64,000 bases of DNA, taken from sequence record OR525701.1. One strand, 5' to 3'. This document shows, one piece after another, positions 8,959 to 45,244 of the stretch. The notes under the pieces were generated by a model that had not been told where the DNA came from, did no database searches, and was given only the letters and a program-made list of their open reading frames with translations. Both the position numbers and the translations under genes were made by a program. How positions within the stretch are numbered: the stretch's first letter is position 1; each line of letters opens with the position of its first letter. The stretch comes from Escherichia phage vB-Eco-KMB38.

Positions 8959-9108
8959 TTCAACGTCACCTTTAGCGGCTTTATAACCTTCAGCCCAAGA
9001 TACAACAGAGTTTTTATCTGAGGATTCAAATTCAGGCATTGGACTTTCACCGATATTCACACAGTATGTTTCTTCATTTTCATCGAACCAAATAATTAAA
9101 GTAGTCAT
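8945..9108 (-). CDS. Hypothetical small protein (~54 aa, below ORF-track cut-off)
   Basis: MTTLIIWFDENEETYCVNIGESPMPEF... preceded by GAGGAGTAAACAAA RBS and a promoter; coordinates approximate. Confidence 0.35.
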
Positions 9109-9168
9109 TTTGTTTACTCCTCTGTAGTTGATAAGTCTATAGTATCACCATCCTTGGTGCTTGTACAT
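9107..9168 (-). promoter_or_regulatory. Early promoter cassette; 44-bp copy also present at 45181-45224
   Basis: tcattttgtttactcctctgtagttgataagtctatagtatcac repeated near-exactly at 45181. Confidence 0.5.
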
Positions 9169-9176
9169 CGTTATTT

Positions 9177-9482
9177 TTAATTTTTCCAACTTAACAACTT
9201 GTAGTGTCCTTCATTCGTACGAGGTTTATCCCAAGAAATACTAATATATGATTCGCTATCAATAGAAGTCGCCGGGTTTTTCTCTACCGTAAGACCTTCA
9301 CTTTCCAGCCATTCAATAGTATTTGCGCATAAATCAGAAGAACACCTCATCGGGAACCGGCAAGATTTTTCACCTTTAGCTGCAGTGTTATACATCTTTT
9401 CTAGAATACGCTTTTGCACGTTTTTAAAAATAGTTTCAGCAGATTCTTCAGATTTTTTATTCAGTTCAGTATAAAGACTCAT
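9177..9482 (-). CDS. Hypothetical protein (101 aa)
   Basis: ORF with GAGGAAAATG RBS downstream of early promoter. Confidence 0.5.
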   Translation of the reverse strand: MSLYTELNKKSEESAETIFKNVQKRILEKMYNTAAKGEKSCRFPMRCSSDLCANTIEWLESEGLTVEKNPATSIDSESYISISWDKPRTNEGHYKLLSWKN

Positions 9483-9499
9483 AACATTTTCCTCTGCGG

Positions 9500-9540
9500 T
9501 TGATAAGTCTATAGTATCATGTCCTTAGAAGAAGTAAACA
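9500..9540 (-). promoter_or_regulatory. Early promoter (GTTTAC -35, TGATACTAT extended -10)
   Basis: Minus-strand sense GTTTACTTCTTCTAAGGACATGATACTATAGACTTATCAAC. Confidence 0.55.
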
Positions 9541-9570
9541 TCTTTATGAAATATTTTTATGCCCTAGATA

Positions 9571-9599
9571 CCAAAAAGCCCCAACCGTAAGGAAGGGGC
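9571..9599 (-). terminator. Rho-independent terminator (GCCCC...GGGGC hairpin plus U-run on minus strand)
   Basis: gccccaaccgtaaggaaggggc preceded on plus strand by aaaaa; lies just 3' of Ip gene 9606..10070. Confidence 0.55.
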
Positions 9600-9605
9600 A
9601 TTCTA

Positions 9606-10070
9606 TTATTTAATTTGTTTAGCAGACCAGATACGGTCTTTAATAAGTTTTTGGATATCTTCAACATACTCAAGGCTATGAGCGTGAGGATTATCTTTGA
9701 AACTATGTGCTCGTGCCAGTTTCTGGCCTTCTGTTTTGATTACTAAAAGCTCTTTAAGAATTGCTTCATACTTAGAAATAATTCCTTTGGCGATATTTTT
9801 TTCTTGAGCTGTTTTAGGGTCCGCTTTTGGCGCAGGTGCTTTACCTGTAGCTTTCTGGAACAATTCACCTGATGCAGCTAGGCTTTTAAAAACTCGGCTA
9901 ACAGTATTAGCATTAGTAAAACCTTCGGCTTTAAAATCTCTAATAAAACGGAAACGTTCTTCATCGGAGGCGTCTTTGTAAGAATATTTACCTGCTTGAA
10001 TTGCTGCAATCGCAGCGGCTTTTACATCTGAACTAGATTGTTCAGTCAAAAATTCAGCGTATGATTTCAT
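9606..10070 (-). CDS. Internal protein (Ip-type) with capsid-targeting sequence
   Basis: N-terminus MKSYAEFLTE; 154 aa. Confidence 0.55.
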   Translation of the reverse strand: MKSYAEFLTEQSSSDVKAAAIAAIQAGKYSYKDASDEERFRFIRDFKAEGFTNANTVSRVFKSLAASGELFQKATGKAPAPKADPKTAQEKNIAKGIISKYEAILKELLVIKTEGQKLARAHSFKDNPHAHSLEYVEDIQKLIKDRIWSAKQIK

Positions 10071-10113
10071 GTTGCTTTTCCTAAGTTAATTAACTTATCT
10101 ATTTATTATTATA

Positions 10114-10142
10114 CCAAAAAGCCCCAACCTTTCGGAAGGGGC
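10114..10142 (-). terminator. Rho-independent terminator
   Basis: gccccaacctttcggaaggggc with U-run on minus strand; near-copy of hairpin at 9578. Confidence 0.55.
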
Positions 10143-10194
10143 TAAGCCTTGCGGCAACCTTGTCGGGGTTCCACCTGCTAAGGCAAGTGTTTGT

Positions 10195-10286
10195 ACGAAA
10201 CGCCGGGATTCGAACCCGGTTATTAAGTAGTTGACGCTACTCAATATTTTTAAAAGGCCATATCTCGACCATATCCGAACGTTCCG
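10195..10286 (-). ncRNA. tRNA-like structured RNA (canonical T-arm and acceptor pairing, aberrant D/anticodon region)
   Basis: Minus-sense CCGGGTTCGAATCCCGG T-arm; 5' CGGAACG pairs with 3' CGTTTCG; interior does not fold as a standard cloverleaf. Confidence 0.3.
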
Positions 10287-10456
10287 TCAAAAACGCTACT
10301 CGGCTTACGGCAAAGATATTTCCTCGAATCGATAATTCTGTGCGCCGTTTCTGCTGTGAGATAAGGGACTTTAAGATGTCAACTCATGTACGCCTTAAAG
10401 TCGGGTCTTATTCAGGGAACATCAGTCCGACGACTTGCCGGTAGCGACCCGGCTTC

Positions 10457-10801
10457 TTATTTTGGCATATCATCAATTTGCTCTCGACGCCGACGCCATA
10501 GATTAATCGCTTCATTAACACATTCGGCGTTTGGTATATGACGGCAATAATATAATGATTCACGTTTCTGGAACCGATGTTGCAACGGGATTTCGTTTAA
10601 AAGGTCTTTACGGTCAAAGTATTCAAAACTAGTTAACCCAGAACGGTTTTTAATGAACTTCCAATGTCCAAATTCATTTTGAACATAGATGTAATCGGCA
10701 TGCTGATACAGCGAATTAATCAATCGATGAGAAATAACTGTATCATATTCGTTAAAATAAAACGTTAAATCATGAACTACCAGATAAACATTGCCTTTCA
10801 T
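10457..10801 (-). CDS. Hypothetical protein
   Basis: ORF-track start at 10849 would overlap tRNA-Arg; internal Met MKGNVYLVVHDL chosen. Confidence 0.45.
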   Translation of the reverse strand: MKGNVYLVVHDLTFYFNEYDTVISHRLINSLYQHADYIYVQNEFGHWKFIKNRSGLTSFEYFDRKDLLNEIPLQHRFQKRESLYYCRHIPNAECVNEAINLWRRRREQIDDMPK

Positions 10802-10819
10802 ATTTTCCTCACTTAAAGT

Positions 10820-10896
<77 letters not shown>

Positions 10897-10902
10897 AATA
10901 TA

Positions 10903-10976
10903 TGACCCAGACCAGATTCGAACTGGTAACCTTTCCCTTATGAGGGGACTGCTGCTAACCGTTGAGCTACAGGGCC
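10903..10976 (-). tRNA. tRNA with CAU anticodon (Ile2/Met type)
   Basis: Minus sense GGCCCTG...GTCCC-CTCATAA-GGGAA...ACCAG-TTCGAAT-CTGGT-CTGGGTC-A; adjacent to tRNA-Arg as in the T4 Ile-Arg pair. Confidence 0.65.
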
Positions 10977-11038
10977 TAAATAACTTTCTATTATGAAAGG
11001 CACTTTAGAGCACCTTTGGTAATAGATGGTATGAATTA

Positions 11039-11065
11039 ATAATAACACATAATTCTTAAAGCAAA
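11039..11065 (-). promoter_or_regulatory. Candidate MotA-dependent middle promoter upstream of the tRNA genes
   Basis: Minus sense TTTGCTTTA (MotA-box-like) followed 12 nt later by TATTAT. Confidence 0.4.
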
Positions 11066-11571
11066 TCAATCATTTTAACAGTTGGCAAAACGATTTCTTC
11101 TTCAATATAAGCAAATTCAACACATTCAACTACACGCAAGAAATCATAATCATAATATTCAGAAGCATGACCAAGAATACCAACGAGACCTTCTGATACT
11201 AAATATCCATTCTCACGGAACAGGTCGAATACACGCGATTCGTCTTCTTCAGATTTATTACCAAGGTCGACTTCAATATCAAAGACCTTTTTAATGAATT
11301 CTGGATAAAGCTGGTCTGAGAACAGTCCTTCAACCAAGTATTCGTAGATTAAAAGCGAGCAATCACTGAATGGTGTATTACCACAGTAACGTTCAGCTTT
11401 AGTGCTGGAATGACGACTCTTAAATTTCTTCAAAAGATATTTAAACTGTTGGAGCTCATGCTCTTCCACTTCAAACAATGTTTTGGTTTTATAGTTGTCA
11501 CCATCATTTTCATAAGTAGTGACATCAATTACGTAACCCTTAGGAATTGTACTGCCTAAACAAATATTCAT
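11056..11571 (-). CDS. Hypothetical protein (171 aa)
   Basis: ORF; acidic; no recognised family. Confidence 0.5.
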   Translation of the reverse strand: MNICLGSTIPKGYVIDVTTYENDGDNYKTKTLFEVEEHELQQFKYLLKKFKSRHSSTKAERYCGNTPFSDCSLLIYEYLVEGLFSDQLYPEFIKKVFDIEVDLGNKSEEDESRVFDLFRENGYLVSEGLVGILGHASEYYDYDFLRVVECVEFAYIEEEIVLPTVKMIDLL

Positions 11572-11575
11572 TTAC

Positions 11576-11866
11576 TCACCGTACCATATTAATGTAATTA
11601 TATTCAATGCAACGTAATTTCAAAGGATTCTTGAAAATATCATATTCAAGAGGGCCTTTTTCTGTTTCAATAAAGAAATCAAAGTTAACTGTGTTAAATT
11701 TATCATCTTCACAGAGTAATTTAACTTGCGAAGATGAACGGTCGATATAAACCTTTTCAACCTCAAAGTTAGTCAGAATACCATAGTCATTAACTAGTGC
11801 TTTAGCTGCACGTTGATCGCTTTCATATCCATTCTCGACAGATTTTACTTTAGCATAAAGAATCAT
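11576..11866 (-). CDS. Hypothetical protein (96 aa)
   Basis: ORF with start overlapping the upstream stop. Confidence 0.5.
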   Translation of the reverse strand: MILYAKVKSVENGYESDQRAAKALVNDYGILTNFEVEKVYIDRSSSQVKLLCEDDKFNTVNFDFFIETEKGPLEYDIFKNPLKLRCIEYNYINMVR

Positions 11867-12225
11867 GAGTGTTCCACCACTTCAAAGGTATGAGCATCAA
11901 CAATATGATACCAGTCAAAATTTTCTTCTGCGTTTTTATAAATTTCGCGAAGAGCCTCAACAGTTTTTCCTGTAGCAACAAGGTCGTCAATACCGCCAAG
12001 AGGATAACAGTCATATCCAGCAAACAGAAGGAAATTAATAGTTTCTGTAGGTTCTGGATGCAGAACACCGTTATCGTCTACCACTTCAAAGAAAGTGTAA
12101 GAAGGAGTACAAGTTTTAATCCAAGCCCATGCTTGAGCTGCTGAATCAAATGGTCTGCGTATCAAACGACAATCAGGGTCTTTAGAAGGATTTGCTTCAA
12201 AATCTGCATATACATGATATTTCAT
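11863..12225 (-). CDS. Hypothetical protein (120 aa)
   Basis: ORF; tight packing with neighbours. Confidence 0.5.
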   Translation of the reverse strand: MKYHVYADFEANPSKDPDCRLIRRPFDSAAQAWAWIKTCTPSYTFFEVVDDNGVLHPEPTETINFLLFAGYDCYPLGGIDDLVATGKTVEALREIYKNAEENFDWYHIVDAHTFEVVEHS

Positions 12226-12432
12226 TTACTCACCTTTTGCAATTTTATCCATAACAATAGCGATTAAACCGATTAGAAATGCTACTACCAATGAGATAGA
12301 ATTTTCTGTTGTTGTCAGTAGTCCACAAATGAATCCTACAAACATCGAAAAACTAAAGGCCATTGAAGCAATTACTACAGCAACATTACGAATCAGTTCA
12401 GCGCGTTTCATTTTATTTCTCCATTTACTCAT
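12226..12432 (-). CDS. Hypothetical small membrane protein
   Basis: 68 aa with two hydrophobic helices; PeSL promoter upstream. Confidence 0.5.
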   Translation of the reverse strand: MSKWRNKMKRAELIRNVAVVIASMAFSFSMFVGFICGLLTTTENSISLVVAFLIGLIAIVMDKIAKGE

Positions 12433-12438
12433 TTGTTT

Positions 12439-12478
12439 TGATAGGACTACTATAACATAGTCCTATCGTGTTGTAAAC
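12439..12478 (-). promoter_or_regulatory. PeSL-type early promoter cassette
   Basis: gataggactactataacatagtcctatcgtgttgtaaac, third copy of the 4521 element. Confidence 0.6.
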
Positions 12479-12481
12479 TAC

Positions 12482-12769
12482 TTACAGAAGAGTTTTTGCA
12501 ATAATTTTAAGCTGAGCTACAGAAATATGCTTAGCTTTAAACAGTGCAGTCTCTTCAGCCGGAGAGATAACAATAGTAGCGCCATCTTTCTTAGCAGACC
12601 ATCCATCCCCTAAGTAAACAGTACCTTTTACTTCTTCACCATCAACCAGACTAATCATTGGTTTACCCTCACGTCCTTTATTTGTTTTAATAACTTCAGA
12701 AGTAAGGGATGCTTCGGTCAGAGTAGAAACGTTAGCAACAGGTGATATAAATTCTTTATAGGTTTTCAT
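12482..12769 (-). CDS. Internal protein (Ip-type), at the ipI position upstream of 57B
   Basis: N-terminus MKTYKEFIS...TLTE; 95 aa; synteny with T4 ipI. Confidence 0.6.
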   Translation of the reverse strand: MKTYKEFISPVANVSTLTEASLTSEVIKTNKGREGKPMISLVDGEEVKGTVYLGDGWSAKKDGATIVISPAEETALFKAKHISVAQLKIIAKTLL

Positions 12770-12793
12770 TTTATTTCCTTGAGGCTGTTTATT

Positions 12794-12833
12794 TGATAGG
12801 ATGATAGTAACACACCATCATCCTTATGTAAAC
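12794..12833 (-). promoter_or_regulatory. PeSL-type early promoter cassette (variant)
   Basis: Minus-strand sense GTTTACATAAGGATGATGGTGTGTTACTATCATCCTATCAA with GGATGAT/ATCATCC inverted repeat. Confidence 0.55.
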
Positions 12834-12846
12834 TGTTTTGTGAAAA

Positions 12847-13532
<686 letters not shown>

Positions 13533-13536
13533 TTTA

Positions 13537-14271
13537 TTACCTTAAGATTTTTTCAATTTTAGAATAAAGCTCTTCTAAAGAGCCGTCGTTTGTAATAACT
13601 AAGTCGCCTTCTTCAATAGGCAACCCAGCTTCTGTAATATGTTTATCAGTGGATTCCGTACCAGAGCGAACCACATGAATAACTGTAGCACCCATCGCTC
13701 TAGCGGTTTCCATTTCATGGACTTGGCGTGTATCGGTCACAACGTAGTAATCGAAATCACTTCCAATATAATCCATATAGTTTAATGCAAAAAGCTTAAC
13801 CCAATACATACGGTCAAATAAATTAACGACAACATCCGTACCGAGGGCTTGCATAAGACGGCGGATCGACCACGTGTCGTTGATATTATTTATAGCTTCA
13901 CGCAGGGCTTCGTACGGTTTAATATCTAGATATGAGTATCCACCTTCTAGTGATGATAATACGTTAACACCATTAATTGGCAGGTATTGTCGTTGTAAAT
14001 AAATTAGCGTTTCTTCCATTAATTCAATAACATCTAATTTATTGAGATTTAATGGTGTTTCACGGTCGTATCCAATACCTTCAAAGTATTCGTATTTCAA
14101 CTCAGTGAATACATCCGGGTTTTCGACGTGTTTACGCTCCCAAGCTATTGCTAGAGAGTCTTTAATTGGATATGCTAATTGATATTTTATGGATTTAAAG
14201 TTTGAATTGATGTAATCAGCAGTAGTGTCTTTACCACTACGTTTGATGCCGCTTAAAAAGATTAGCTCCAT
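13537..14271 (-). CDS. 1: Deoxynucleoside monophosphate kinase
   Basis: MELIFLSGIKRSGKDTTADY P-loop and overall similarity to T4 gp1. Confidence 0.9.
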   Translation of the reverse strand: MELIFLSGIKRSGKDTTADYINSNFKSIKYQLAYPIKDSLAIAWERKHVENPDVFTELKYEYFEGIGYDRETPLNLNKLDVIELMEETLIYLQRQYLPINGVNVLSSLEGGYSYLDIKPYEALREAINNINDTWSIRRLMQALGTDVVVNLFDRMYWVKLFALNYMDYIGSDFDYYVVTDTRQVHEMETARAMGATVIHVVRSGTESTDKHITEAGLPIEEGDLVITNDGSLEELYSKIEKILR

Positions 14272-14325
14272 AGGTTTTTCCTCATATAATTTATGAACGA
14301 TTATAACATATGGAGCTAGAAGCGA

Positions 14326-14916
14326 TTAGCGCAAGGAAGGATGTCTAGAAATGGATTTAGATTCGGCAGCTTGACGTGGTTGTTGAGATACAATGACTTC
14401 GCCATCCTTTTCTATCGTCATATACGCGTAGTGAATAGTTGCTACGCACGTAACGGCAGGATCAGAGTCTTCAGTGTAACTAAATTCAATTTCGCTCAAA
14501 TCGGAAATCCATGGTTTATAGAAATTTGCCGTCAAAACCACTTCAGTCTTATTGTTGTTTAAAATGTGCAAAGTAACAAACTCAGGACCATCGGAGTGTG
14601 CCGTATTATGGCCGGTTATATAGTTATTAGTGCTGAGCATCCATTTATACATGTTCATCCAGGACGTCATGTCTTCATCAACTATAAATCGTACAATAAA
14701 AGGGTCATATTCAAATGTAGTGCCTGCACGCATTGCACGACCTAGCCCCATTGTGCCAGTCACAGTTTCAACAACAGGAATTCTCACACCTGGCAGTGGA
14801 GCCGTTTGGGCATTGAGCACAAAACCTGAAGTTCGTGTACTATCCGGGATATCCACAACAAAGTTTGTTATATTTGTTTGGTTAAAAATCTGTCTCGCTG
14901 GACGAGTCATAAGCAC
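14326..14916 (-). CDS. 3: gp3 tail completion/sheath stabiliser
   Basis: Synteny between genes 1 and 2; start codon uncertain. Confidence 0.6.
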   Translation of the reverse strand: MLMTRPARQIFNQTNITNFVVDIPDSTRTSGFVLNAQTAPLPGVRIPVVETVTGTMGLGRAMRAGTTFEYDPFIVRFIVDEDMTSWMNMYKWMLSTNNYITGHNTAHSDGPEFVTLHILNNNKTEVVLTANFYKPWISDLSEIEFSYTEDSDPAVTCVATIHYAYMTIEKDGEVIVSQQPRQAAESKSISRHPSLR

Positions 14917-15012
14917 CTCAAAAACGCTTTAATAAAAATGCAGTATAATGGTTTTAGGTCTCTTCCATTAATCCGGTTCAACAGAATATCAGACGAACGG
15001 AAGAGAATAGAA

Positions 15013-15834
15013 TTAAGACTTCCAAACAGTATTCGCAGAGAAACGTTTTCCTTTTGACATAAACTGCTGAGTAGGTAACATGATTATGTTAGCCCAGTCT
15101 TTAGGAGCTATTTCTGTTATTGTTCCTCTAATGTGGCCTGGCAGGTATGCTTTAATCATTTTGTCGGCACCTTGAAATCCTTTCACCTTGCTCCAATCTA
15201 TCTTCAACTTTGTGTTATTAGTAATAGTAGTTGTGCTAGCATATTGCTTCAGCAATTCTTCAAGAAACTGTTGACGTGCTTTAGGTGGGATATAGTGCAA
15301 GTTTAACCCATACATCAAATTATGTTTACCTAATCCTAAATAAATAATCAAAGGATATCTGTCCCAATACGGCAGAGTATCCTTATGTTTAGCATCATAC
15401 ACGTAAGTATAAATTTTGCCTGGCGTAGGCTTGACTACTTTATGACCTTTTACACTTTTCTTAATTGTTTCAACAAACCACTTAGATGATTTGTTGTTTA
15501 CTGCTGCGCCTTCATTTCTAATCTTTTCTCGTATTGAACTGCGAAACGAGTTTATCATCAGAAGTTGACGTTCTTGCTTATTGAGTTTATTTTTAGGTTT
15601 AGATTCAAGCGTTTCAATTTTCTGTGCAGTCTTAATAGATGATGCATATCTAGACATTGCAGATGTAAACGACGAGTATTTTATTCCTTTTGATTCTGCA
15701 AATGCTTTTGCAGTGATTCCTTTCTCTTTAGCTTTCTTGTATTCTAATCCTATCTCAATCCATTTTCTTTCATTTATAGACTGAGCAATCTTAGGGGCTT
15801 GTACGCCTTCAGATATAATTTGGAATATGCTCAT
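15013..15834 (-). CDS. 2: gp2 DNA end-protector protein
   Basis: 273 aa basic protein; synteny and size match T4 gp2. Confidence 0.7.
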
Positions 15835-15836
15835 AA

Positions 15837-16286: not shown

Positions 16287-16347
16287 GTTGTCCTCCTTAT
16301 AAATAGTATTATTATTTATACCAATTTCATATTGGAAGGAGACTATT

Positions 16348-24400: not shown

Positions 24401-24544
24401 CGACGCAAGCCAATGAGCCCATTATTTGATGCATCAGGTACAACGTTCTCTAGATTTAGAGAGCTTGTTAATGAAAGATTGCTAGATAACGTGGGAAATC
24501 CTAGAGACCCGATTAATCCACCACAGGTTAAATTAGATGAATGA
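21446..24544 (+). CDS. 7: gp7 baseplate wedge protein
   Basis: 1032 aa, synteny and size as T4 gp7. Confidence 0.85.
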   Translation: MTVKAPAVTSLRLSKLSANQVQIRWDEVGANFYYFVEIAETKTANGEAIPRNSYRWTNLGYTADNNFFESGLNSLTTYMMRVATAAEGFEQSDWRYTEEFETFEINAYTFQHMIEMQLANEFISEKFTKNNTNYVDFNNDTIMAALMSESFQFSPAYTDVSSIRNFIIGENQYHEIQGHIQDVCKDINRVYLMESEGILYLFERFQPIVKVSNDKGQTWKAVKLLNDRVGYPLSRTVYYQSEYTTYLLGYDKIFYGRKSSDIRWSADDVRFSSQDVTFAKIGDRLNLGFDVEIFGTYASLPGNVSRIAEAITCNDDYVYIAARDKVRFVKTSNAPIDSDPLSPTYSERLFEPETFTITGNPKAVCYKMDSVGGRIFALIIGEVENVNDDPRTKPILDSVDKGVYVLDHDAGTFKRIFGNTEEERRRIEPAFTNMSTDGVELYISSSNFKFLESDIVDDPETQSKYELLRAVKYEYPREWLADKHYHMMIFASNEESNWETFSPTPMQYYAEPFFSYSRKSGTRSWINNSDRAVVIYSDLLYTKVVESHPSTSPDRKVHEYWNDGDCKIVMPNIEFTGFKKYASGMLFYKSSGEIISYYDFSYRVRDNVSIIWKPTNVFLTASLQNQEKETSWVPVEETGLADPDLRPLLTTMMPESYLLDNTNFEAFCEAYIQYLSDGYGTHYNNLLNLIKNKYPREEHAWEYLWSEIYKRNIYLNAEKRDLVSRFFESRSYDFYSTKGTEASYKFLFKVLYNEDVEVEIESSAGTEYDIIIQSDSISEDLVGQTIYTATGRCNVTYLERSYSKGKLQWTVTIHNLLGRLLVGQEVKAERLADFEGEIVRGIKGKELAQNTIDYFNRGRAYYVMKIKSNLPSSRWKSDVLRFVHPVGFGFIAITLLTMFINTGLTLKHVETIINKYKNYKWDSGLPTEYADRVARLDPQGNVEFSPVTGEVIYDAGPYAGIEYPLPANYNEENDNSIFQGQLPSERRKPMSPLFDASGTTFSRFRELVNERLLDNVGNPRDPINPPQVKLDE

Positions 24545-25541
24545 TTCAAGTGTTGTCTATCGTGCGATAGTTACTTCAAAATTTAGAACTGAAAAAATGT
24601 TGAATTTCTACAATTCAATAGGTGATGGTGATAATAAAAACACCATCTTTATAACGTTTGGTCGGTCTGAACCATGGGCTGCTAATGAAAATGAGGTGGG
24701 CTTCGCCCCACCGTATCCAACAGACTCGGTTTTAGGTGTAGCAGATATGTGGACTAACATGATGGGTTTAGTTAAAGTTATCCCATCTATGTTAGACTCG
24801 GTTATTCCTAGACGTGACTGGGGAGATATTCGTTATCCAGACCCTTATACATTCAAAATAAATGATATAGTCGTATGTAATACAGCCCCTTATAATGCTA
24901 CTGAAGTCGGGGCTGGATGGTTAGTATATCGTTGCGTAGATGTTCCTGATGTTGGGATGTGTTCTATTGAGTCTCTCGACAACAAAGAAGAATGTCTTAA
25001 ATTAGGTGGTAAATGGACACCTTCTGTTAGGTCAATGACTCCTCCTGAAGGTCGTGGAGATGCTGAAGGGATTATCGAAGTTGGTGATGGATATATATGG
25101 GAGTATCTTTATGAGATTCCACCTGATGTGTCTATAAACCGATGTACTAATGAATATATAGTCGTTCCATGGCCGGAAGAAGTTAAAGAAGACCCTGCTC
25201 GTTGGGGATATGAAAACAATCTAACCTGGCAACAAGATGATTTTGGCCTTGTGTATAGAGTTAAAGCAAACATAATTCGTTTTAAAGCCTATTTAGACTC
25301 AGTTTATTTCCCTAATGCAGCACTGCCTGGTAATAAAGGATTTAGACAAATTTCTATTATCACAAACCCCTTGGAAGCTAAACTCCGTCCTAATGACCCT
25401 AATATAAAGGCTGAAAAGGATTATTATGACCCTAGAGATTTACAGCGTCATTCTGGTGAAATGATTTATATGGAAAACCGTCCACCTATTATTATGGCAA
25501 TGGACCAAACCGAAGAGATCAATATTTTGTTTATGTTCTAA
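24537..25541 (+). CDS. 8: gp8 baseplate wedge protein
   Basis: 334 aa; size and position. Confidence 0.85.
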   Translation: MNDSSVVYRAIVTSKFRTEKMLNFYNSIGDGDNKNTIFITFGRSEPWAANENEVGFAPPYPTDSVLGVADMWTNMMGLVKVIPSMLDSVIPRRDWGDIRYPDPYTFKINDIVVCNTAPYNATEVGAGWLVYRCVDVPDVGMCSIESLDNKEECLKLGGKWTPSVRSMTPPEGRGDAEGIIEVGDGYIWEYLYEIPPDVSINRCTNEYIVVPWPEEVKEDPARWGYENNLTWQQDDFGLVYRVKANIIRFKAYLDSVYFPNAALPGNKGFRQISIITNPLEAKLRPNDPNIKAEKDYYDPRDLQRHSGEMIYMENRPPIIMAMDQTEEINILFMF

Positions 25542-25545: not shown

Positions 25546-25567
25546 GGGAGACTTCGGTCTCCCTTTC
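25546..25567 (+). terminator. Stem-loop/terminator after gene 8
   Basis: gggagacttcggtctccc followed by ttt; identical hairpin after gene 23. Confidence 0.45.
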
Positions 25568-36864: not shown

Positions 36865-36891
36865 AAATAAAGCAAATTAAGAGGAATTAAA

Positions 36892-38874
36892 ATGGCACTT
36901 CTCTCTCCGGGCGTTGAGCTCAAAGAAACTACCGTACAGAGTACTGTAGTTAATAACTCCACTGGTACTGCTGCCCTGGCTGGAAAATTCCAATGGGGAC
37001 CTGCATTCCAGATTAAACAAATCACCGATGAAGTTGCGTTGGTTGATATGTTTGGTACTCCTAATACGGATACAGCAGATTATTTCATGTCTGCTATGAA
37101 CTTCCTTCAATATGGTAACGACCTTCGTGTTGTACGCGCAGTCGATCGTGATACTGCTAAGAACTCATCTCCTGTGGCAGGAAACATTAATTTTACTATT
37201 TCTTCGGCTGGCACCAACTATAGAGTCGGTGATAAAGTTGTAGTTAAATATTCTACAGATATTATCGAACCAGACGGTGAAGTTACTTCGGTTGATTCTG
37301 ACGGTAAAATTTTGAATATCTTTATTCCTTCAGGTAAAATTATCGCTAAAGCGAAAGAAATCGGCGAATATCCTGAATTAGGTTCAAACTGGACTGCCGA
37401 AATGTCTGGGTCTTCTTCTGGTCTGTCTGCAGTAATTACTATTGATTCTGTTGTAATGGATTCTGGTATTCTGTTGACTGAAGTTGAAACTTCAGAAGAA
37501 GCTATTACTTCTCTAACTTTCCAAGAATCTATTAAAAAATACGGTGTCCCGGGTGTAGTTGCTCTTTATCCTGGTGAACTTGGCGACCAGCTCGAAATTG
37601 AAATCGTATCTAAAGCAGACTATGACAAAGGTGCTTCGGCCCAGTTAAAAATTTATCCTGATGGTGGTACTCGTGCATCTACTGCTAAAGCAATCTTTGG
37701 GTATGGCCCGCAAACTGATGACCAATATGCAATTATCGTTCGTCGCAACGACGCGGTAGTCCAGAGCGTAGTTCTTTCTACTAAACGTGGTGAACGCGAT
37801 ATTTATGGTAGCAATATCTTCATTGATGATTTCTTTGCTAAAGGCGCAAGCAATTATATTTTCGCTACGGCACAAGGTTGGCCAAAAGGTTTCTCTGGCG
37901 TAATCAAACTGAATGGTGGCTTATCATCTAATGAAACGGTTGAAGCCGGTGATTTAATGGAAGCTTGGGATTTGTTTGCTGACCGTGAATCGGTTAATGC
38001 ACAGTTGTTTATTGCTGGTTCTTGTGCTGGTGAATCTTTAGAAGTTGCTTCTACAGTTCAGAAACATGTTGTAGCAATTGGTGATTCTCGTCAAGATTGC
38101 TTGGTTCTTTGCTCACCGCCACGTGCAACTATAGTCGGTATTCCTGTTAATCGTGCAGTTGATAATCTGGTTGATTGGCGTACAGCGTCAGGAACTTACA
38201 CTGATAATAACTTTAATATAAGTTCTACTTATGCTGCTATTGATGGTAACTATAAATATCAATATGACAAATATAACGATGTGAATCGTTGGGTTCCATT
38301 AGCTGCTGATATCGCCGGTCTTTGTGCTCGAACAGACAATATTTCTCAGCCTTGGATGTCTCCAGCCGGTTATAACCGTGGACAAATTCTTAACGTTATT
38401 AAGCTTGCAATTGAAACTCGTCAAGCACAGCGTGATCGTTTGTATCAAGAAGCTATTAACCCTGTTACTGGTACCGGTGGTGATGGATATGTTCTGTACG
38501 GTGATAAAACTGCCACTTCTGTTCCTTCGCCATTTGACCGTATTAACGTACGTCGTTTGTTTAACATGGTTAAAACGAACATTGGTTCAGCATCCAAATA
38601 TCGCCTATTTGAATTGAACAACGCATTTACCCGTTCGTCTTTCCGTACAGAGACTTCTCAATATCTACAGGGTATTAAAGCTCTCGGTGGTGTATATAAC
38701 TTTAAAGTTGTTTGTGATACTACCAATAACACCCCAGCAGTTATCGACCGTAATGAATTTGTAGCTACTTTCTACTTACAACCTGCCCGCTCGATAAATT
38801 ATATTACGTTGAACTTTGTAGCAACAGCAACTGGCGCTGATTTCGACGAACTGATTGGTGCTGTAGGTGGCTAA
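36892..38874 (+). CDS. 18: Tail sheath protein
   Basis: MALLSPGVELKETTVQ; 660 aa. Confidence 0.95.
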   Translation: MALLSPGVELKETTVQSTVVNNSTGTAALAGKFQWGPAFQIKQITDEVALVDMFGTPNTDTADYFMSAMNFLQYGNDLRVVRAVDRDTAKNSSPVAGNINFTISSAGTNYRVGDKVVVKYSTDIIEPDGEVTSVDSDGKILNIFIPSGKIIAKAKEIGEYPELGSNWTAEMSGSSSGLSAVITIDSVVMDSGILLTEVETSEEAITSLTFQESIKKYGVPGVVALYPGELGDQLEIEIVSKADYDKGASAQLKIYPDGGTRASTAKAIFGYGPQTDDQYAIIVRRNDAVVQSVVLSTKRGERDIYGSNIFIDDFFAKGASNYIFATAQGWPKGFSGVIKLNGGLSSNETVEAGDLMEAWDLFADRESVNAQLFIAGSCAGESLEVASTVQKHVVAIGDSRQDCLVLCSPPRATIVGIPVNRAVDNLVDWRTASGTYTDNNFNISSTYAAIDGNYKYQYDKYNDVNRWVPLAADIAGLCARTDNISQPWMSPAGYNRGQILNVIKLAIETRQAQRDRLYQEAINPVTGTGGDGYVLYGDKTATSVPSPFDRINVRRLFNMVKTNIGSASKYRLFELNNAFTRSSFRTETSQYLQGIKALGGVYNFKVVCDTTNNTPAVIDRNEFVATFYLQPARSINYITLNFVATATGADFDELIGAVGG

Positions 38875-38906
38875 TAAGACGCCTGATGGGCTATTTCGGT
38901 AGCCCA

Positions 38907-38914
38907 TATAAATA
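38907..38914 (+). promoter_or_regulatory. T4 late promoter TATAAATA (gene 19)
   Basis: Exact TATAAATA after hairpin gggctatttcggtagccc. Confidence 0.6.
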
Positions 38915-38986
38915 TACTATATCGTTTAAAAATTAATTCTATGGGCATCCGGTTAATCCTAAGCCCATATTACTACAGAGGCTAAT

Positions 38987-39478
38987 ATGTTTGTAGATGA
39001 CGTAACTCGTGCCTTCGAATCTGGTGATTTCGCTCGCCCTAACCTGTTCGAAGTAGAAATCTCTTATCTTGGGCAAAACTTTAGCTTCCAGTGTCGTGCT
39101 ACTGCTCTTCCTGCTGCGATCGTTGAAAAGGTTCCTGTTTCTTATATGAACCGTAAAATTAACGTGGCCGGTGACCGTACATTCGATGATTGGACTATTA
39201 CAGTAATGAACGACGATGCTCATAGTATTCGTCAGAAATTCGTTGATTGGCAAGGTATTGCAGCAGGACAAGGTAATGAAATTACCGGTGGTAAACCTGC
39301 TGAATATAAAAAGTCTGCTATCGTTCGTCAATTTGCTCGTGATGCTAAAACGGTCACTAAAGAAGTTGAAATTGTTGGCTTGTGGCCTACTAACGTTGGT
39401 GAAGTATCTCTTGATTGGGATTCGAATAACGAGATTGAAACGTTCGAAGTAACTCTTGCTCTTGATTGGTGGGAATAA
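38987..39478 (+). CDS. 19: Tail tube protein
   Basis: 163 aa; MFVDDVTRAFESGDFARPNLFEVEI. Confidence 0.95.
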   Translation: MFVDDVTRAFESGDFARPNLFEVEISYLGQNFSFQCRATALPAAIVEKVPVSYMNRKINVAGDRTFDDWTITVMNDDAHSIRQKFVDWQGIAAGQGNEITGGKPAEYKKSAIVRQFARDAKTVTKEVEIVGLWPTNVGEVSLDWDSNNEIETFEVTLALDWWE

Positions 39479-39526
39479 TCTGGTTGGGGAGAAATCCCCA
39501 GCTTCCCGTGATGACGGAGAAGTCCA

Positions 39527-39534
39527 TATAAATA
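39527..39534 (+). promoter_or_regulatory. T4 late promoter TATAAATA (gene 20)
   Basis: Exact TATAAATA after hairpin tggggagaaatcccca. Confidence 0.6.
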
Positions 39535-39562
39535 TAACTATAATTCCCATTCGGAGAATACA

Positions 39563-41134
39563 ATGAAATTTAATATCTTAAGTTTGTTTGCTCCATGGGC
39601 AAAAATGGACGAACGTGATTACAAAGACCAAGAAAAAGAAAATTTAGAATCTATCACCACACCAAAATTAGACGACGGTGCTAAAGAATACGAAGTATCT
39701 GAAAATGAAGCACAGCAAACATATAATGCTATGTTTCAGAGAATGTTCGGTAGTCAAGAACCAGGGCTCAAATCAACACGTGAATTAATCGATACGTATC
39801 GAAATTTGATGACGAACTATGAAGTGGATAATGCAGTCTCTGAAATAGTTTCCGATGCTATCGTATATGAAGATGATACAGAAGTCGTTTCTATAAATTT
39901 AGACAACACAAAATTTAGTCCAAATATCAAATCAATGATGTTGGATGAATTTAACGAAGTGTTAAATCATTTATCTTTCCAACGTAAAGGTTCAGATCAT
40001 TTTAGACGTTGGTATGTGGATTCTCGAATTTTCTTCCATAAAATTATTGACCCTAAACGCCCTAAAGAAGGTATTAAAGAGCTTCGTCGTTTAGACCCAC
40101 GTCAAGTTCAATATGTCCGTGAAGTTATTACAACCACTGAAGCCGGTGTTAAAATAGTCAAGGGTTATAAAGAATATTTCATTTATGACACATCACACGA
40201 ATCTTATGCTTGTGATGGTCGCATATATGAAGCTGGCACAAAAATAAAAATCCCTAAAGCCGCGATTGTTTATGCCCATTCTGGTTTAGTTGATTGTTGT
40301 GGTAAAAATATCATTGGTTATTTGCATCGGGCTATTAAGCCGGCAAACCAATTAAAACTTCTTGAAGATGCCGTCGTAATTTATCGTATTACTCGTGCTC
40401 CTGATCGTCGTGTATGGTACGTTGATACAGGTAATATGCCTTCAAGAAAAGCAGCAGAACATATGCAACATGTTATGAATACGATGAAAAACCGTATTGC
40501 ATATGATGCTACTACAGGCAAGATTAAAAACCAGCAGCATATTATGTCGATGACCGAAGATTATTGGTTACAACGACGTGATGGTAAAGCAGTAACAGAA
40601 GTTGATACATTACCGGGTGCAGATAATACTGGAAATATGGAAGATGTACGTTGGTTCCGTAATGCGCTTTATATGGCTTTACGTATTCCTATTACCCGTA
40701 TTCCAAGCGACCAAGGTGGTATACAGTTTGATGCTGGTACTTCTATTACACGAGATGAATTGTCGTTTGGTAAATTTATTCGTGAGCTGCAACATAAATT
40801 TGAAGAGATATTCCTAGACCCGCTTAAAACTAATTTAATTCTTAAAGGAATTATTACAGAAGATGAGTGGAATGATGAAATAAATAATATTAAGATAAAA
40901 TTTCATCGGGATAGTTATTTCTCGGAATTAAAGGATGCTGAGATTCTGGAGCGTCGCATTAATATGCTTCAGATGGCCGAACCATTTATTGGTAAATATA
41001 TTTCTCACAGAACAGCTATGAAAGATATTCTTCAGATGTCTGACGAGGAAATTGAACAAGAGGCTAAGCAAATTGAAGAAGAGTCGAAAGAGGCTCGTTT
41101 CCAAGACCCCGACCAAGAACAAGAGGATTTTTAA
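39563..41134 (+). CDS. 20: Portal vertex protein
   Basis: 523 aa; synteny and size. Confidence 0.95.
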
Positions 41135-41364
41135 TGGACGATTTAATTCAAGCTATTAAATCAAACGACCTCGTTGCTACTCGAAAGTTTTTTGAAAGTG
41201 CAATGGCAGAAAAAACGGTTCGTTTGATTGAAGCGCGCAAAGCAGAAATCGCTTCTCAATTTTTGATTGAAGGCGAAGAACCTGAAGAAGAAAAGAAAGC
41301 TTCGGAAGACGACGCTGATGAAGGCGATGACGACGAAGACGAAGATGATGAGGACGATGAATAA
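41134..41364 (+). CDS. 67: Prohead core protein gp67
   Basis: 76 aa with acidic D/E tail. Confidence 0.8.
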
Positions 41365-41789
41365 TGTATCTTATCCCTGAATCTTATGAATTGGTACTCG
41401 AAAATGTCGAAGCACTTATTCCTGAAGCACAGGGCCGAATCGATGCATTGTCTTCTGCTCTCGATATTGACGATATAAATACTATTATCGAGAACATGCT
41501 TGAAACTGAAACGGATTTAGCTGTTGCAATGGCTTCCATTATTAATGAAGAACAGTTAAATGAGTTTATCGTTAAACATGTTTCTTCTCGTGGTGAAGTC
41601 ACCCGCACTAAAGACCGTAAAACTCGCGAACGTAACGCGTTCCAAACCACTGGTCTTTCTAAAGCAAAACGTAGACAAATCGCTCGTAAGGTCGTTAAAG
41701 CTAAAAAAGCTAACCCTTCAGGCCAAGTTAAAGGCTTGCGTAAGCGTAAAAAGGCTCTTAAACGTCGTAAAGCATTAGGATTAAGCTAA
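41364..41789 (+). CDS. 68: Prohead core protein gp68
   Basis: 141 aa, basic C-terminus. Confidence 0.8.
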
Positions 41790-42430
41790 TGAATAAACCC
41801 GAGTTACTTATTGAAACTTGGGGTCAACCCGGTGAGATTATTGATGGCGTTCCAATGTTGGAATCTCATGATGGAAAAGATTCTGGCTTAAAACCAGGGC
41901 TTTATATAGAAGGTATTTTTCTTCAGGCAGAGGTTGTTAACCGAAATAAACGTTTATATCCTAAACGCGTTTTGGAAAAAGCAGTAAGTGACTATATTAA
42001 AGAACAAGTCGCAACCAAACAAGCCCTTGGAGAATTAAACCATCCACCTCGTGCAAATGTTGACCCTATGCAAGCCGCTATCATTATTGAAGATATGTGG
42101 TGGAAAGGAAACGATGTATATGGACGTGCTAGAATTATTGAAGGCGACCATGGTCCCGGCGATAAATTAGCTGCTAATATACGAGCTGGCTGGATTCCAG
42201 GTGTTTCCTCTCGTGGTCTTGGTTCTTTAACCGACACCAATAAAGGGTACCGTATCGTGAACGAAGGATTTAAATTAACCGTCGGCGTAGATGCCGTATG
42301 GGGACCTTCTGCTCCAGATGCTTGGGTTACTCCTAAACAAATATCAGAATCAGAAAATTCGGTGGAAACCACCAAAAACAGTGCTGATGAAGCATTTAAA
42401 GCTCTCGCAGAGAGTTTAAAAGCATTATAA
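41789..42430 (+). CDS. 21: Prohead core protease
   Basis: 213 aa; synteny. Confidence 0.9.
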   Translation: MNKPELLIETWGQPGEIIDGVPMLESHDGKDSGLKPGLYIEGIFLQAEVVNRNKRLYPKRVLEKAVSDYIKEQVATKQALGELNHPPRANVDPMQAAIIIEDMWWKGNDVYGRARIIEGDHGPGDKLAANIRAGWIPGVSSRGLGSLTDTNKGYRIVNEGFKLTVGVDAVWGPSAPDAWVTPKQISESENSVETTKNSADEAFKALAESLKAL

Positions 42431-42433
42431 ATA
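42426..42433 (+). promoter_or_regulatory. T4 late promoter TATAAATA (gene 22)
   Basis: Exact TATAAATA overlapping the gene 21 stop. Confidence 0.6.
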
Positions 42434-42463
42434 ATAATGTAATCTAAACCACAGGACACTAAA

Positions 42464-43276
42464 ATGATCAAAGAACAACTTTTGAAAGAAGCTCAGAATA
42501 TCGAGACTTCAGTTGCTCTTAATAGTGTTTTCGAATCAGTAGAACTGTCTCCGGACGTTAAAGCTAATTTCAGCACTGTATTCGAAGCCACCGTTAAGCA
42601 GGAAGCAGTCAAACTGGCTGAATCTCATATTAAAGCCATCGCCGAAAAAGCCGAAGAAGAAGTTGAAAAGGCTAAAGAAGATGCTGAAGAGAAAGCTGAT
42701 AAAAAATTGGCTGAACAAGCTTCTAAATTCCTAGACCATCTTGCAAAAGAATGGCTCGCAGAAAACCAAATCGCAGTTGATAAAGGCATTAAAGCTGATT
42801 TGTTCGAATCCATGCTTGGTGGTCTGAAAGAACTGTTTGTTGAACATAACGTTGTTGTTCCAGAAGAATCTGTAGATGTTGTAGCAGAAATGGAAGAAGA
42901 GCTGGCCGAACATAAAGAAGAAACCGCTCGTTTGTTCGAAGAAGTTGCCAAACGTGATGCATATATCAATTACGTTCAGCGTGAAACCGCTATTAATGAA
43001 AGCGTAAAAGACCTGACTGAATCTCAGAAAGAAAAAGTTATTGGCCTGGTTGAAGGTATGGATTATTCTGACGCATTTGGTACTAAGTTAACTGCTATTG
43101 TAGAAATGGTTAAAGGTTCTACTAAAGAAGAAGCCGCTATTACCGAAAGTATAAATACAGTTGACAATGACGCTGCCGGTCTTAATTTTGTTGCCGAAGC
43201 AGTTGACACTACCACAACTCAGGTAGAACAGAATTCTAATGTAAGTTTATATGCGAAAGTCGCATCTCGTTTCTAA
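42464..43276 (+). CDS. 22: Prohead core scaffold protein
   Basis: 270 aa, highly acidic helical. Confidence 0.9.
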   Translation: MIKEQLLKEAQNIETSVALNSVFESVELSPDVKANFSTVFEATVKQEAVKLAESHIKAIAEKAEEEVEKAKEDAEEKADKKLAEQASKFLDHLAKEWLAENQIAVDKGIKADLFESMLGGLKELFVEHNVVVPEESVDVVAEMEEELAEHKEETARLFEEVAKRDAYINYVQRETAINESVKDLTESQKEKVIGLVEGMDYSDAFGTKLTAIVEMVKGSTKEEAAITESINTVDNDAAGLNFVAEAVDTTTTQVEQNSNVSLYAKVASRF

Positions 43277-43293
43277 TTTAAAGGTTAACACAA

Positions 43294-44862
43294 ATGACTA
43301 CTATCAAAACTAAAGCTCAGCTCGTAGATAAATGGAAAGAACTGCTGGAAGGTGAAGGCCTGCCGGAAATCGCTAATAGCAAGCAGGCTATTATCGCTAA
43401 AATCTTCGAAAACCAGGAAAAAGATTTCGAAGTATCCCCTGAATATAAAGACGAGAAAATCGCTCAGGCATTTGGTTCTTTCTTGACCGAAGCTGAAATT
43501 GGTGGTGACCACGGTTATAATGCTCAGAACATCGCAGCAGGTCAAACCTCTGGTGCAGTAACCCAAATTGGGCCAGCAGTTATGGGTATGGTTCGTCGTG
43601 CTATTCCTAATCTGATCGCTTTTGATATTTGTGGTGTTCAGCCTATGAACAGCCCTACCGGTCAGGTATTTGCTCTCCGTGCAGTATATGGTAAAGACCC
43701 TATCGCTGCAGGCGCTAAAGAAGCTTTCCATCCGATGTATGCCCCAGACGCGATGTTCTCTGGTCAGGGTGCTGCTAAGAAATTCCCAGCTCTGGCTGCT
43801 GACACTACTACTGTTGTAGGTGATATCTATACTCACTTCTTCCAAGAAACTGGTACTGTATATCTGCAAGCTTCTGCTGTCGTAACACTTGATTCTAGTG
43901 CGACTGATGCAGCTAAATTAGATGCAGAAGTTAAGAAACAAATGGAAGCTGGTGCACTGGTAGAAATCGCTGAAGGTATGGCTACTTCTATCGCTGAACT
44001 TCAGGAAGGTTTCAACGGTTCTACCGATAACCCATGGAATGAAATGGGCTTCCGTATCGATAAACAAGTTATTGAAGCTAAATCTCGCCAGCTGAAAGCT
44101 GCTTACTCTATCGAATTAGCACAAGACCTCCGTGCAGTACACGGTATGGATGCTGATGCTGAACTGAGTGGTATTCTGGCTACAGAAATTATGCTAGAAA
44201 TCAACCGTGAAGTTGTTGATTGGATTAACTACTCTGCACAGGTTGGTAAATCTGGTATGACCCTGACTCCGGGTTCTAAAGCTGGTGTATTTGACTTCCA
44301 GGACCCGATTGATATCCGTGGTGCTCGTTGGGCCGGTGAAAGCTTTAAATCTCTGTTGTTCCAGATTGATAAAGAAGCAGTTGAAATTGCTCGTCAAACC
44401 GGTCGTGGTGAAGGTAACTTCATTATCGCTTCCCGTAACGTAGTTAACGTACTGGCTTCAGTTGATACTGGTATTTCTTACGCTGCACAGGGTCTGGCTT
44501 CTGGTTTTAATACCGACACTACTAAGTCTGTATTTGCCGGTGTACTTGGTGGTAAATACCGCGTATACATCGACCAGTATGCTAAACAGGATTACTTCAC
44601 CGTTGGTTACAAAGGCGCTAACGAAATGGATGCAGGTATTTACTATGCTCCTTACGTTGCACTTACCCCACTGCGTGGTTCCGATCCTAAGAACTTCCAG
44701 CCGGTAATGGGCTTTAAAACTCGTTACGGTATCGGTGTTAACCCGTTTGCTGAAAGTTCCCTGCAGGCTCCAGGTGCTCGCATCCAGTCCGGTATGCCGT
44801 CTATCCTGAACAGCCTTGGTAAGAACGCTTACTTCCGCCGTGTATATGTAAAAGGCATCTAA
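43294..44862 (+). CDS. 23: Major capsid protein
   Basis: 522 aa; MTTIKTKAQLVDKWKELLEGEG N-terminal propeptide. Confidence 0.97.
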   Translation: MTTIKTKAQLVDKWKELLEGEGLPEIANSKQAIIAKIFENQEKDFEVSPEYKDEKIAQAFGSFLTEAEIGGDHGYNAQNIAAGQTSGAVTQIGPAVMGMVRRAIPNLIAFDICGVQPMNSPTGQVFALRAVYGKDPIAAGAKEAFHPMYAPDAMFSGQGAAKKFPALAADTTTVVGDIYTHFFQETGTVYLQASAVVTLDSSATDAAKLDAEVKKQMEAGALVEIAEGMATSIAELQEGFNGSTDNPWNEMGFRIDKQVIEAKSRQLKAAYSIELAQDLRAVHGMDADAELSGILATEIMLEINREVVDWINYSAQVGKSGMTLTPGSKAGVFDFQDPIDIRGARWAGESFKSLLFQIDKEAVEIARQTGRGEGNFIIASRNVVNVLASVDTGISYAAQGLASGFNTDTTKSVFAGVLGGKYRVYIDQYAKQDYFTVGYKGANEMDAGIYYAPYVALTPLRGSDPKNFQPVMGFKTRYGIGVNPFAESSLQAPGARIQSGMPSILNSLGKNAYFRRVYVKGI

Positions 44863-44886
44863 TCTTAATTGATTAAATCTTATTTT

Positions 44887-44912
44887 GGGAGACTTCGGTC
44901 TCCCATTTTTGG
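44887..44912 (+). terminator. Rho-independent terminator after gene 23
   Basis: gggagacttcggtctccc followed by atttttggtttt. Confidence 0.7.
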
Positions 44913-44914
44913 TT

Positions 44915-45184
44915 TTATTTCTGTGCAATTTCGATGTAAGTTTTCAAAATATTTTGCCAATTAGGCATACCTTCTTGGACATATGCTGGAGAACCGTCTT
45001 TGTTTTTGAATGATGCAAGTTTATCAGTGGCCCAATAACCTTTAGCTCGAGCTTCAGAATCAACTTTCATCCATACTTTGTTGAAGGCATTACCATTAAC
45101 TTTTGCACCATATTTTTCTACTAACTTAACGGCTTCAGTTTCCAGAACTTTTAAAGTATCTCGTAAGAAACGTGCTTTAGTCAT
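44915..45184 (-). CDS. Hypothetical protein (89 aa) in the 23-24 intergenic slot
   Basis: ORF with GAGGAGTAAACAAA RBS and its own early promoter; T4 carries segD at this position. Confidence 0.55.
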   Translation of the reverse strand: MTKARFLRDTLKVLETEAVKLVEKYGAKVNGNAFNKVWMKVDSEARAKGYWATDKLASFKNKDGSPAYVQEGMPNWQNILKTYIEIAQK

Positions 45185-45204
45185 TTTGTTTACTCCTCTG
45201 TAGT

Positions 45205-45244
45205 TGATAAGTCTATAGTATCACATACCAAATACGTTGTAAAC
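45205..45244 (-). promoter_or_regulatory. PeSL-type early promoter cassette
   Basis: Minus-strand sense GTTTACAACGTATTTGGTATGTGATACTATAGACTTATCAAC. Confidence 0.55.

Follow-up and report, generated by a model that had tools for sequence, protein, structure and literature searches.

The closest described systems to the repeat considered here are the promoter-early stem-loop (PeSL) cassettes of T4-type phages (Arbiol et al. 2010, PMC2839356; Comeau et al. 2014, PMC4122927). PeSLs are known from RB49/phi1, PST/T4, and nt-1/KVP40; RB69 is absent from the 2010 paper. Crossovers at PeSLs were mapped experimentally between the -10 element and the Shine-Dalgarno sequence (SD) or ATG, and less than 50 bp of homology is enough for T4 recombination (PMC2839356). 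A further parallel is formed by the IP genes of T-even phages, which carry conserved 5' leaders (Repoila et al. 1994, as cited in PMC4122927). For the early promoters of RB69, which are of the sigma-70, Alt-stimulated T4 type, the consensus is GTTTAC-N14-gtggTAttaT (Nolan et al. 2006, PMC1524935). The system analyzed here is a pair of identical 47-bp promoter-leaders on the minus strand of Escherichia phage vB-Eco-KMB38 (OR525701.1), of which a stretch of 64,000 nucleotides—the window—was studied. One twin precedes a small open reading frame (ORF) of the e-tRNA hyperplastic region, a homolog of RB69ORF145c, and the other precedes a small ORF between genes 23 and 24 of the head-gene module. Most probably, the identity of the twins goes back to a short patch that was copied once between members of the early-promoter family and later took on a role in the swapping of payloads.

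Extent and occurrence of the 47-bp repeat

An earlier note on this DNA had reported a 44-bp sequence at 9107–9150 and again at 45181–45224. The 44-mer has two exact plus-strand occurrences, where the expected number of matches is 0 as judged by 100 shuffles. The second position is exact; at the first, the sequence is real and its position is 2 nt too high, the correct one being 9105–9148. The duplication is thus confirmed, with three omitted bases to be added: the exact identity spans 47 bp (Table 1) and reads GTGATACTATAGACTTATCAACTACAGAGGAGTAAACAAAATGACTA on the minus strand. When the window is compared with itself, no other exact repeat of either orientation is as long as this pair in the 64 kb scanned. 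Next come repeats of 29, 24, 23, and 21 bp, which represent the cores of other early promoters, and after those terminator hairpins. The two copies are spaced by 36 kb and, in agreement with the earlier note, supply a small minus-strand ORF at both sites with its ribosome-binding site, together with the -10 region, the leader, and the start codon.

Phage records that contain the 47-mer perfectly or at ≥99% identity number 126, the RB69 reference genome among them, and each usually has it at 2–5 places; 126 of the 144 records in the ≥90% identity bands carry it perfectly. The 901 bp around it are ≥99% identical in just 13 records. As a rough indication, this difference between the 47-mer, perfect in most Mosigvirus records, and its surroundings points to constraint on the 47-mer. 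Both loci were inspected directly in RB69, HX01, and UGJNEcP2, and one locus in SA79RD (23–24) and NBG1 (ORF145c). In the two stretches of about 0.8–0.9 kb that were compared, identity to the window reaches 100% in Escherichia phages PTK and AlbertHofmann and 96–99% in many other RB69-group Mosigviruses.

Anatomy and predicted function of the promoter-leaders

The two promoters differ in their -35 hexamers, both of which lie outside the identical tract, and carry GTGATACTAT 14 nt past the hexamer. By inspection, A/T-rich sequence lies upstream of each, TATTTATAAAGATT at copy 2 and GGAAAAATTAAAAATAACG at copy 1. A generic sigma-70 scan reports copy 2 as TTTACA-17-TACTAT with an upstream TG. The annotation of SA79RD has a T4-type early promoter at the orthologous 23–24 site, and in RB69 the sites of copy 1 and copy 2 are the predicted early promoters Pe:72567 and Pe:109605 (Nolan et al. 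2006, PMC1524935, additional file 3). Both sites match the RB69 consensus and are listed in that catalogue, which gives coordinates only and in which no mention was found of an identical tract from -10 to ATG. By sequence, both twins belong to the bona fide T4-type early-promoter class.

The leader is 24 nt long and unstructured, with the SD GAGGAG 8 nt ahead of the ATG. Its RNA folds no better than shuffled controls (z = +1.0 and +1.4, that is, less structured), and no Rfam family spans either copy. A structured RNA element was therefore rejected, the Rfam hits obtained being below threshold and on terminators. The leader looks like a plain, open translation-initiation region.

In the proposed mechanism, host sigma-70 RNA polymerase would read the locus-specific -35 hexamer—GTTTAC at 23–24 and ATGTAC at ORF145c—together with the shared extended -10. 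Transcription would start about 7 nt downstream of the -10, at the A of TATCAAC within the family-wide motif TATCAA, and would yield the 24-nt leader with its SD. By analogy with T4, both small genes would be expressed immediately, strongly, and by the host polymerase. GGAG is the kind of site that the phage RNase RegB cuts in early mRNAs; since the SD contains it, sensitivity to RegB is probable by the same analogy.

The shared tract could also be read as an operator through which one post-transcriptional regulator—a RegA-like repressor, RegB, or a small RNA—targets both mRNAs. The identity runs beyond the promoter through the whole 5' untranslated region and the start codon, the GGAG of the SD is the RegB motif by general knowledge of T4, and the tract is better conserved than its surroundings. 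Against this stand an RNA structure that does not rise above background and yields no Rfam hit, and a GAGGAG>GTGGAG variant that is tolerated in HX01, UGJNEcP2, and an IMG/VR contig. A shared operator would moreover explain why the identity is kept, not how it arose. It is quite unlikely as an account of the twins, and it is compatible with a copied patch.

Origin of the identity

The arrangement GTTTAC-N17/18-TAnnnT-...TATCAA...-SD-ATG recurs on the minus strand of the window at 13 sites or more. In the 78 pairwise alignments of 13 promoter-leaders from -10 to ATG, the median identity is 62% (standard deviation 9.5). The twin pair is an outlier at 100%, and the next-best pair reaches 76%. Family resemblance thus explains similarity, not identity, which argues for the copying of a DNA patch from one locus to the other. 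On both sides, the 47-bp identity breaks off abruptly and at a functional boundary (the -10 on one side, codon 2 on the other), and the flanks of each locus are orthologous to those of its own relatives.

In the preferred reading, the patch from the -10 region to codon 2 would have been copied in an ancestral Mosigvirus by homologous recombination or gene conversion. Each copy would then have drifted independently under purifying selection, and the leader together with the gene-23 terminator would provide homology arms for payload swapping between phages, in modular shuffling of the PeSL type. A crossover between the twins would delete the 36 kb that separate them, with baseplate, tail, and head genes, and therefore only non-crossover (patch) outcomes are viable.

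The later history of the copies can be followed in their variants. The SD change A>T (GAGGAG>GTGGAG) is confined to the ORF145c locus, where HX01, UGJNEcP2, and an IMG/VR contig have it; UGJNEcP2 also has one G>A change, restricted to its 23–24 copy; and RB69 differs by three changes, one of them next to the -10, again in the 23–24 copy alone. The event is older than the Mosigvirus radiation, given the occurrence of both copies in more than 100 genomes and the restriction of each later variant to a single locus. The pattern fits one old transfer followed by independent, mostly conservative evolution, and not continuing homogenization. Codon 2 (ACT) was considered as a sign of an ORF145c origin and dropped, since the metagenomic ORF-A allele L022 also starts with ATGACT. 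The nearest ORF-A-type alleles have yet another leader type.

Ongoing concerted evolution, in which frequent gene conversion keeps the copies identical, is very unlikely. T4-type recombination does act on homology of this length (<50 bp, PMC2839356), and the 47-mer is far more often perfect (126 of 144 records) than its 901-bp surroundings are ≥99% identical (13 records). Purifying selection on a promoter and translation-initiation region explains this conservation equally well, however, and a changed copy is never matched by its partner in HX01, in RB69, or in UGJNEcP2, where each copy carries a different change. With all variants in these three phages locus-specific, homogenization was rejected as the main explanation.

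Independent convergence of two unrelated promoters on one optimal sequence could appeal to the strong early-promoter consensus of the phage, which reaches past the -10, and is effectively refuted by the distribution of identities (at most 76% in the other 77 promoter pairs), by the identity of non-consensus leader positions, by the sharp ends, and by a chance expectation of 0. The chance of an assembly or sequencing artefact is likewise negligible: no point was found in its support, and the presence of both copies in more than 100 independently sequenced genomes, RB69 included, rules out misassembly.

The gene 23–24 slot and its natural recombinants

The ORF behind copy 2 is divergent from gene 24 and convergent with gene 23, and its 3' end abuts the gene-23 terminator hairpin. 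The -35 hexamer of copy 2 lies 7 bp from the late promoter of gene 24, TATAAATA. The content of this junction varies. T4 carries segD; Mosig-, Dhaka-, and Gapriverviruses carry an ORF of phrog_6003; the junction is empty (80–96 bp with the terminator hairpin and TATAAATA) in RB5 (Tequatrovirus), CF1 (Moonvirus), Roth34, and Melville. Both contents named in the earlier note, segD or nothing, hence occur, next to the phrog_6003 ORF elsewhere. Aeromonas phage 25 has two plus-strand ORFs here, and LF82-1 has the Dhaka-type ORF (ORF-B) plus a segD-like endonuclease, an arrangement that 04086 probably shares. Because the contents vary among relatives, the junction is a variable slot; compared with an empty junction, what fills it is an inserted cassette with its own promoter. 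The block of gene-24 start, late promoter, and GTTTAC -35 hexamer is conserved in JS10, VR20, 04086, LF82-1, and T4, with ATTTAC at the -35 position in T4.

Further details accompany these slots. The segD-like GIY-YIG gene of LF82-1 (L005, 1201–2130) codes for 219 amino acids, follows the Dhaka-type ORF, and has 73% DNA identity with T4 segD. In 04086 (L006, 1201–2200), ORF-B is joined by an unannotated stretch of about 730 bp that aligns with LF82-1 across the whole locus. The empty junction of Melville (L029, about 1250–1290) retains TGTAAAACAATATTATAAATA, which resembles the block of GTAAAC (the -35 hexamer on the other strand) and TATAAATA in the window and may be a remnant of a lost cassette or due to chance.

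Homologs of the 89-aa ORF are collinear in the same slot of JS10 (Dhakavirus) and VR20 (Gaprivervirus) at 32–37% identity and of three metagenomic T4-like contigs at 61–71%. The ORF, described in the earlier note as an ORFan, is therefore not one; it is an old, widespread resident. Alleles of the slot ORF carry at least three leader types, and leader and payload have not co-diverged.

Two phages with a Mosigvirus backbone have leaders or payloads of JS10 type. Across gene 24, the promoter, and the leader as far as ...CAGAGGAG, LF82-1 agrees with the window at 95%; its left breakpoint lies inside the leader, right after GAGGAG, and is followed by JS10-type ATTAAAAATGAAC... On the right, the sequence becomes window-like again about 10 nt before the terminator hairpin or at the hairpin. 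JM10 carries a complete JS10-type leader. LF82-1 has a payload swap at the 23–24 slot, and its left breakpoint falls in the same place as the crossovers mapped in PeSLs, between -10 and SD or ATG. An IMG/VR scan with the 20-nt promoter core returned three contigs—too few for a survey of payloads—one of which has the core ahead of an unrelated 78-aa ORF.

Slot behavior and swaps uphold in part the earlier proposal that the ORF was acquired as a cassette, and the 47-bp duplication neither dates nor demonstrates the acquisition, because the closest ORF-A-type alleles have a different leader and the block of -35 hexamer and late promoter is conserved even in T4. What stands of the earlier reading as a whole is the cassette site and the shuffled leader; the ORFan status and an acquisition shown by the duplication alone fall away. 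The term "mobile" for the promoter-leader is also given up: no autonomous mobility is indicated, and the pattern is that of homologous exchange within a promoter family. A transposable element or miniature inverted-repeat transposable element was rejected, as no inverted-repeat pair flanks either copy and the identity stops at functional boundaries.

Several observations weigh against a copied patch with a later role in payload swapping. The stem-loop that defines PeSLs is missing at both twins, and no terminator-like site lies upstream of them. The best inverted repeat around the -10 is only 3 bp, compared with 6–9 bp in five other early promoters of the window. Copy 1 is missed by the generic sigma-70 scan and has a weak -35 hexamer (4/6). 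The donor is not singled out: the 23–24 leaders of JS10 and 04086 (78% identity to the 47-mer, 5 gap columns; in JS10 with the same SD and spacing) and the ORF145c leaders of T2, Shfl2, and HMD-9 (75%, 10–11 gap columns) are about equally close. The adjacent homing endonuclease, rather than the leader, could have driven the swap in LF82-1. Finally, promoter activity, start site, and RegB cleavage in this phage are inferred.

Features of the two loci

Table 1. Positions of the twin promoter-leaders and of the features around them in the window
Feature	Position	Strand	Basis or remark
Copy 1 of the 47-bp twin	9102..9148	-	Sequence scan
Copy 1, -35 hexamer ATGTAC	9163..9168	-	4/6 vs GTTTAC; orthologous to T2/Shfl2 locus
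Copy 1, extended -10 GTGA+TACTAT	9148..9139	-	Sequence
Copy 1, predicted start site	near 9132	-	From spacing only
Copy 1, SD GAGGAG	9122..9117	-	Sequence
Copy 1, ATG	9108..9106	-	Codon 2 then closes the repeat
54-aa ORF, RB69ORF145c homolog, phrog_5461, function unknown	8944..9108	-	e-tRNA hyperplastic region
101-aa ORF, RB69ORF146c homolog	9177..9482	-	Upstream of copy 1
Related leader, 21 nt exact (GATACTATAGACTTATCAAC...)	9474..9520	-	Drives the 101-aa ORF
Gene 23, major capsid protein	43294..44862	+	Left flank of the slot
Hairpin TGGGAGACTTCGGTCTCCCA	44886..44905	.	Gene-23 terminator, 3' boundary of slot cassette; T-run after + strand only
89-aa ORF between genes 23 and 24, phrog_6003, function unknown	44915..45184	-	ORF call
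Copy 2 of the 47-bp twin	45178..45224	-	Sequence scan
Copy 2, ATG	45184..45182	-	Sequence
Copy 2, SD	45198..45193	-	Sequence
Copy 2, predicted start site	near 45208	-	Inferred
Copy 2, extended -10	45224..45215	-	Sequence
Copy 2, -35 hexamer GTTTAC	45239..45244	-	6/6; kept in JS10, VR20, 04086, LF82-1
Gene 24 late promoter TATAAATA	45251..45258	+	Back to back with early promoter of the cassette
Gene 24, capsid vertex protein	45286..46569	+	Right flank of the slot

The neighbors of copy 1 and the ORF145c homolog are a frd.3-like gene on one side and the ORF146c homolog on the other. Copy 1 and the related leader of the latter, 372 bp away, form a pair of direct repeats that brackets the ORF146c homolog. 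Homologs of ORF145c are also present in T2-type Tequatroviruses (T2, Shfl2) at 96–98% amino-acid identity. This is closer than general knowledge leads one to expect between Mosigvirus and a T2-type Tequatrovirus and would suggest a recent horizontal exchange of this small gene between them. The T2-type -35 and spacer (TGTACAAACACCAAGGACGGTG) and the coding sequence align closely with the flanks of copy 1, and the T2 leader and the 47-mer have TATAGACTTATCAA, TACAGA, and ATGACTA in common. The T2 leader has no twin, being single-copy in T2, and at this locus T2 and Shfl2 lack both ORF146c and the frd.3-like ORF. In the Mosigviruses G53 (L014, 1666–2169) and NHEP29 (L015, 2145–2648), one 167-aa ORF replaces the homologs of ORF145c and ORF146c, which is a further replacement within the same hyperplastic stretch.

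The 89-aa ORF has no significant Pfam domain, GIY-YIG included; DUF4859 scores 17.9 bits, below its cut-off of 22.6 bits. Its AlphaFold model is of moderate quality, with a predicted local distance difference test score (pLDDT) of 68 and a predicted template modeling score (pTM) of 0.56, and a Foldseek search with it returned only the ORF-B homolog in BFVD and nothing in the PDB. A homing-endonuclease cassette of the seg/mob kind was rejected, as the 89-aa ORF has no endonuclease domain and no fold match. In RB69, the 23–24 ORF is annotated as two pieces, ORF188c and ORF189c (L007, RB69 109291–109571); the gene is either decaying there or hit by sequence errors.

Other features were observed in passing. 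A 334-aa late gene (24537–25541, just before a TATAAATA) and gene 23 are followed by the same terminator hairpin of 18 bp, GGGAGACTTCGGTCTCCC, which has a UUCG-type loop and lies at 25546–25563 and 44887–44904; it is another repeated regulatory module. Two tandem gp24-like vertex-protein genes are present in a 173-kb metagenomic T4-like contig (L019, 1–2401) and in Salmonella phage Melville (L029, 1301–2948). Runs of GAAGACGA/GATGA codons, an acidic Asp/Glu-rich repeat in coding sequence, lie at 41305–41364 and 52594–52623.

Other repeats of the early-promoter family

Five of the 13 early promoters have a perfect inverted repeat of 6–9 bp around the -10 hexamer, and a sixth (61315) has one of 5 bp; the minus-strand -35 positions of the six are 12478, 4561, 5856, 12833, 61315, and 8670. 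Three arm sequences are found: GATAGGACT/AGTCCTATC; AGGATG/CATCCT; and TGAGAGC/GCTCTCA. Among control TAnnnT hexamers, only 3.6% reach an inverted repeat of 6 bp. Covariation of the arms suggests selection for a hairpin with the -10 displayed in its loop; this is probably the 'AGNA-loop-TCNT' stem known from PST/T4-type PeSLs (PMC4122927).

A 32-bp repeat with 91% identity is located at 9568–9599 and 10111–10142, 543 bp apart. On the minus strand it forms a GC hairpin followed by a T-run, GCCCCTTCC...GGGGCTTTTT. The first copy lies upstream of the ORF146c promoter, which in this respect is unlike the twins. By their layout, both sites are units of terminator and promoter as in canonical PeSLs.

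Implications

Within the widely used RB69/Mosigvirus group, the twins provide a clean case from nature of how T4-type phages move small early genes: the hyperplastic region and a variable slot within an otherwise rigid capsid-gene block have a promoter-leader of about 47 bp in common, and in the field isolate LF82-1 a payload swap is broken inside that leader. For annotation, both ORFs should be marked as early genes with their own promoters. For phage engineering, the 23–24 slot tolerates insertions and has a ready promoter and terminator.

A wider idea, which we consider unlikely, is that the 23–24 junction of T-even phages is a dedicated expression slot, with the divergent promoter block and the terminator as standing homology arms and the twin as a trace of import. 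Such a slot would functionally resemble an integron attachment site, in that fixed arms serve the exchange of early payloads. If so, segD, ORF-A, ORF-B, and ORF-B plus endonuclease would be early-expressed payloads exchanged between genera at this site, and the twin would have been left behind by a payload or leader that came from the e-tRNA hyperplastic region. Should the fast-diverging phrog_6003 protein prove to act against host defense or to confer immunity to an endonuclease, the capsid operon would harbor a small arms-race locus in this slot.

Comparison with known systems

With the IP genes, as these are cited in PMC4122927, the twins share a conserved regulatory or 5' segment proposed as the homology for the shuffling of payloads at one locus; locus and sequence are different. 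With T4 segD, a freestanding GIY-YIG homing endonuclease, the 89-aa ORF shares the slot, the orientation, and the divergent block of early and late promoters, whereas the slot of the window is without an endonuclease gene and holds this ORF alone.

The PeSLs differ from the twins in two further respects. The twins are 36 kb apart and flank essential genes, which leaves no viable deletion or small mini-circle, and one twin lies inside the conserved head-gene module, outside the hyperplastic region. The likeness to PeSLs is threefold: a repeated unit of early promoter, SD, and ATG stands ahead of small non-essential ORFs; at both loci, it is tied to insertions, deletions, and replacements between close relatives; and the related leaders 372 bp apart bracket the ORF146c homolog in the manner of a PeSL-flanked cassette. 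On this comparison, the twins may best be described as working like PeSLs without being canonical PeSLs. They are a real but ordinary case of the recombination-prone regulatory cassettes known in T4-type phages and call for no new mechanism.

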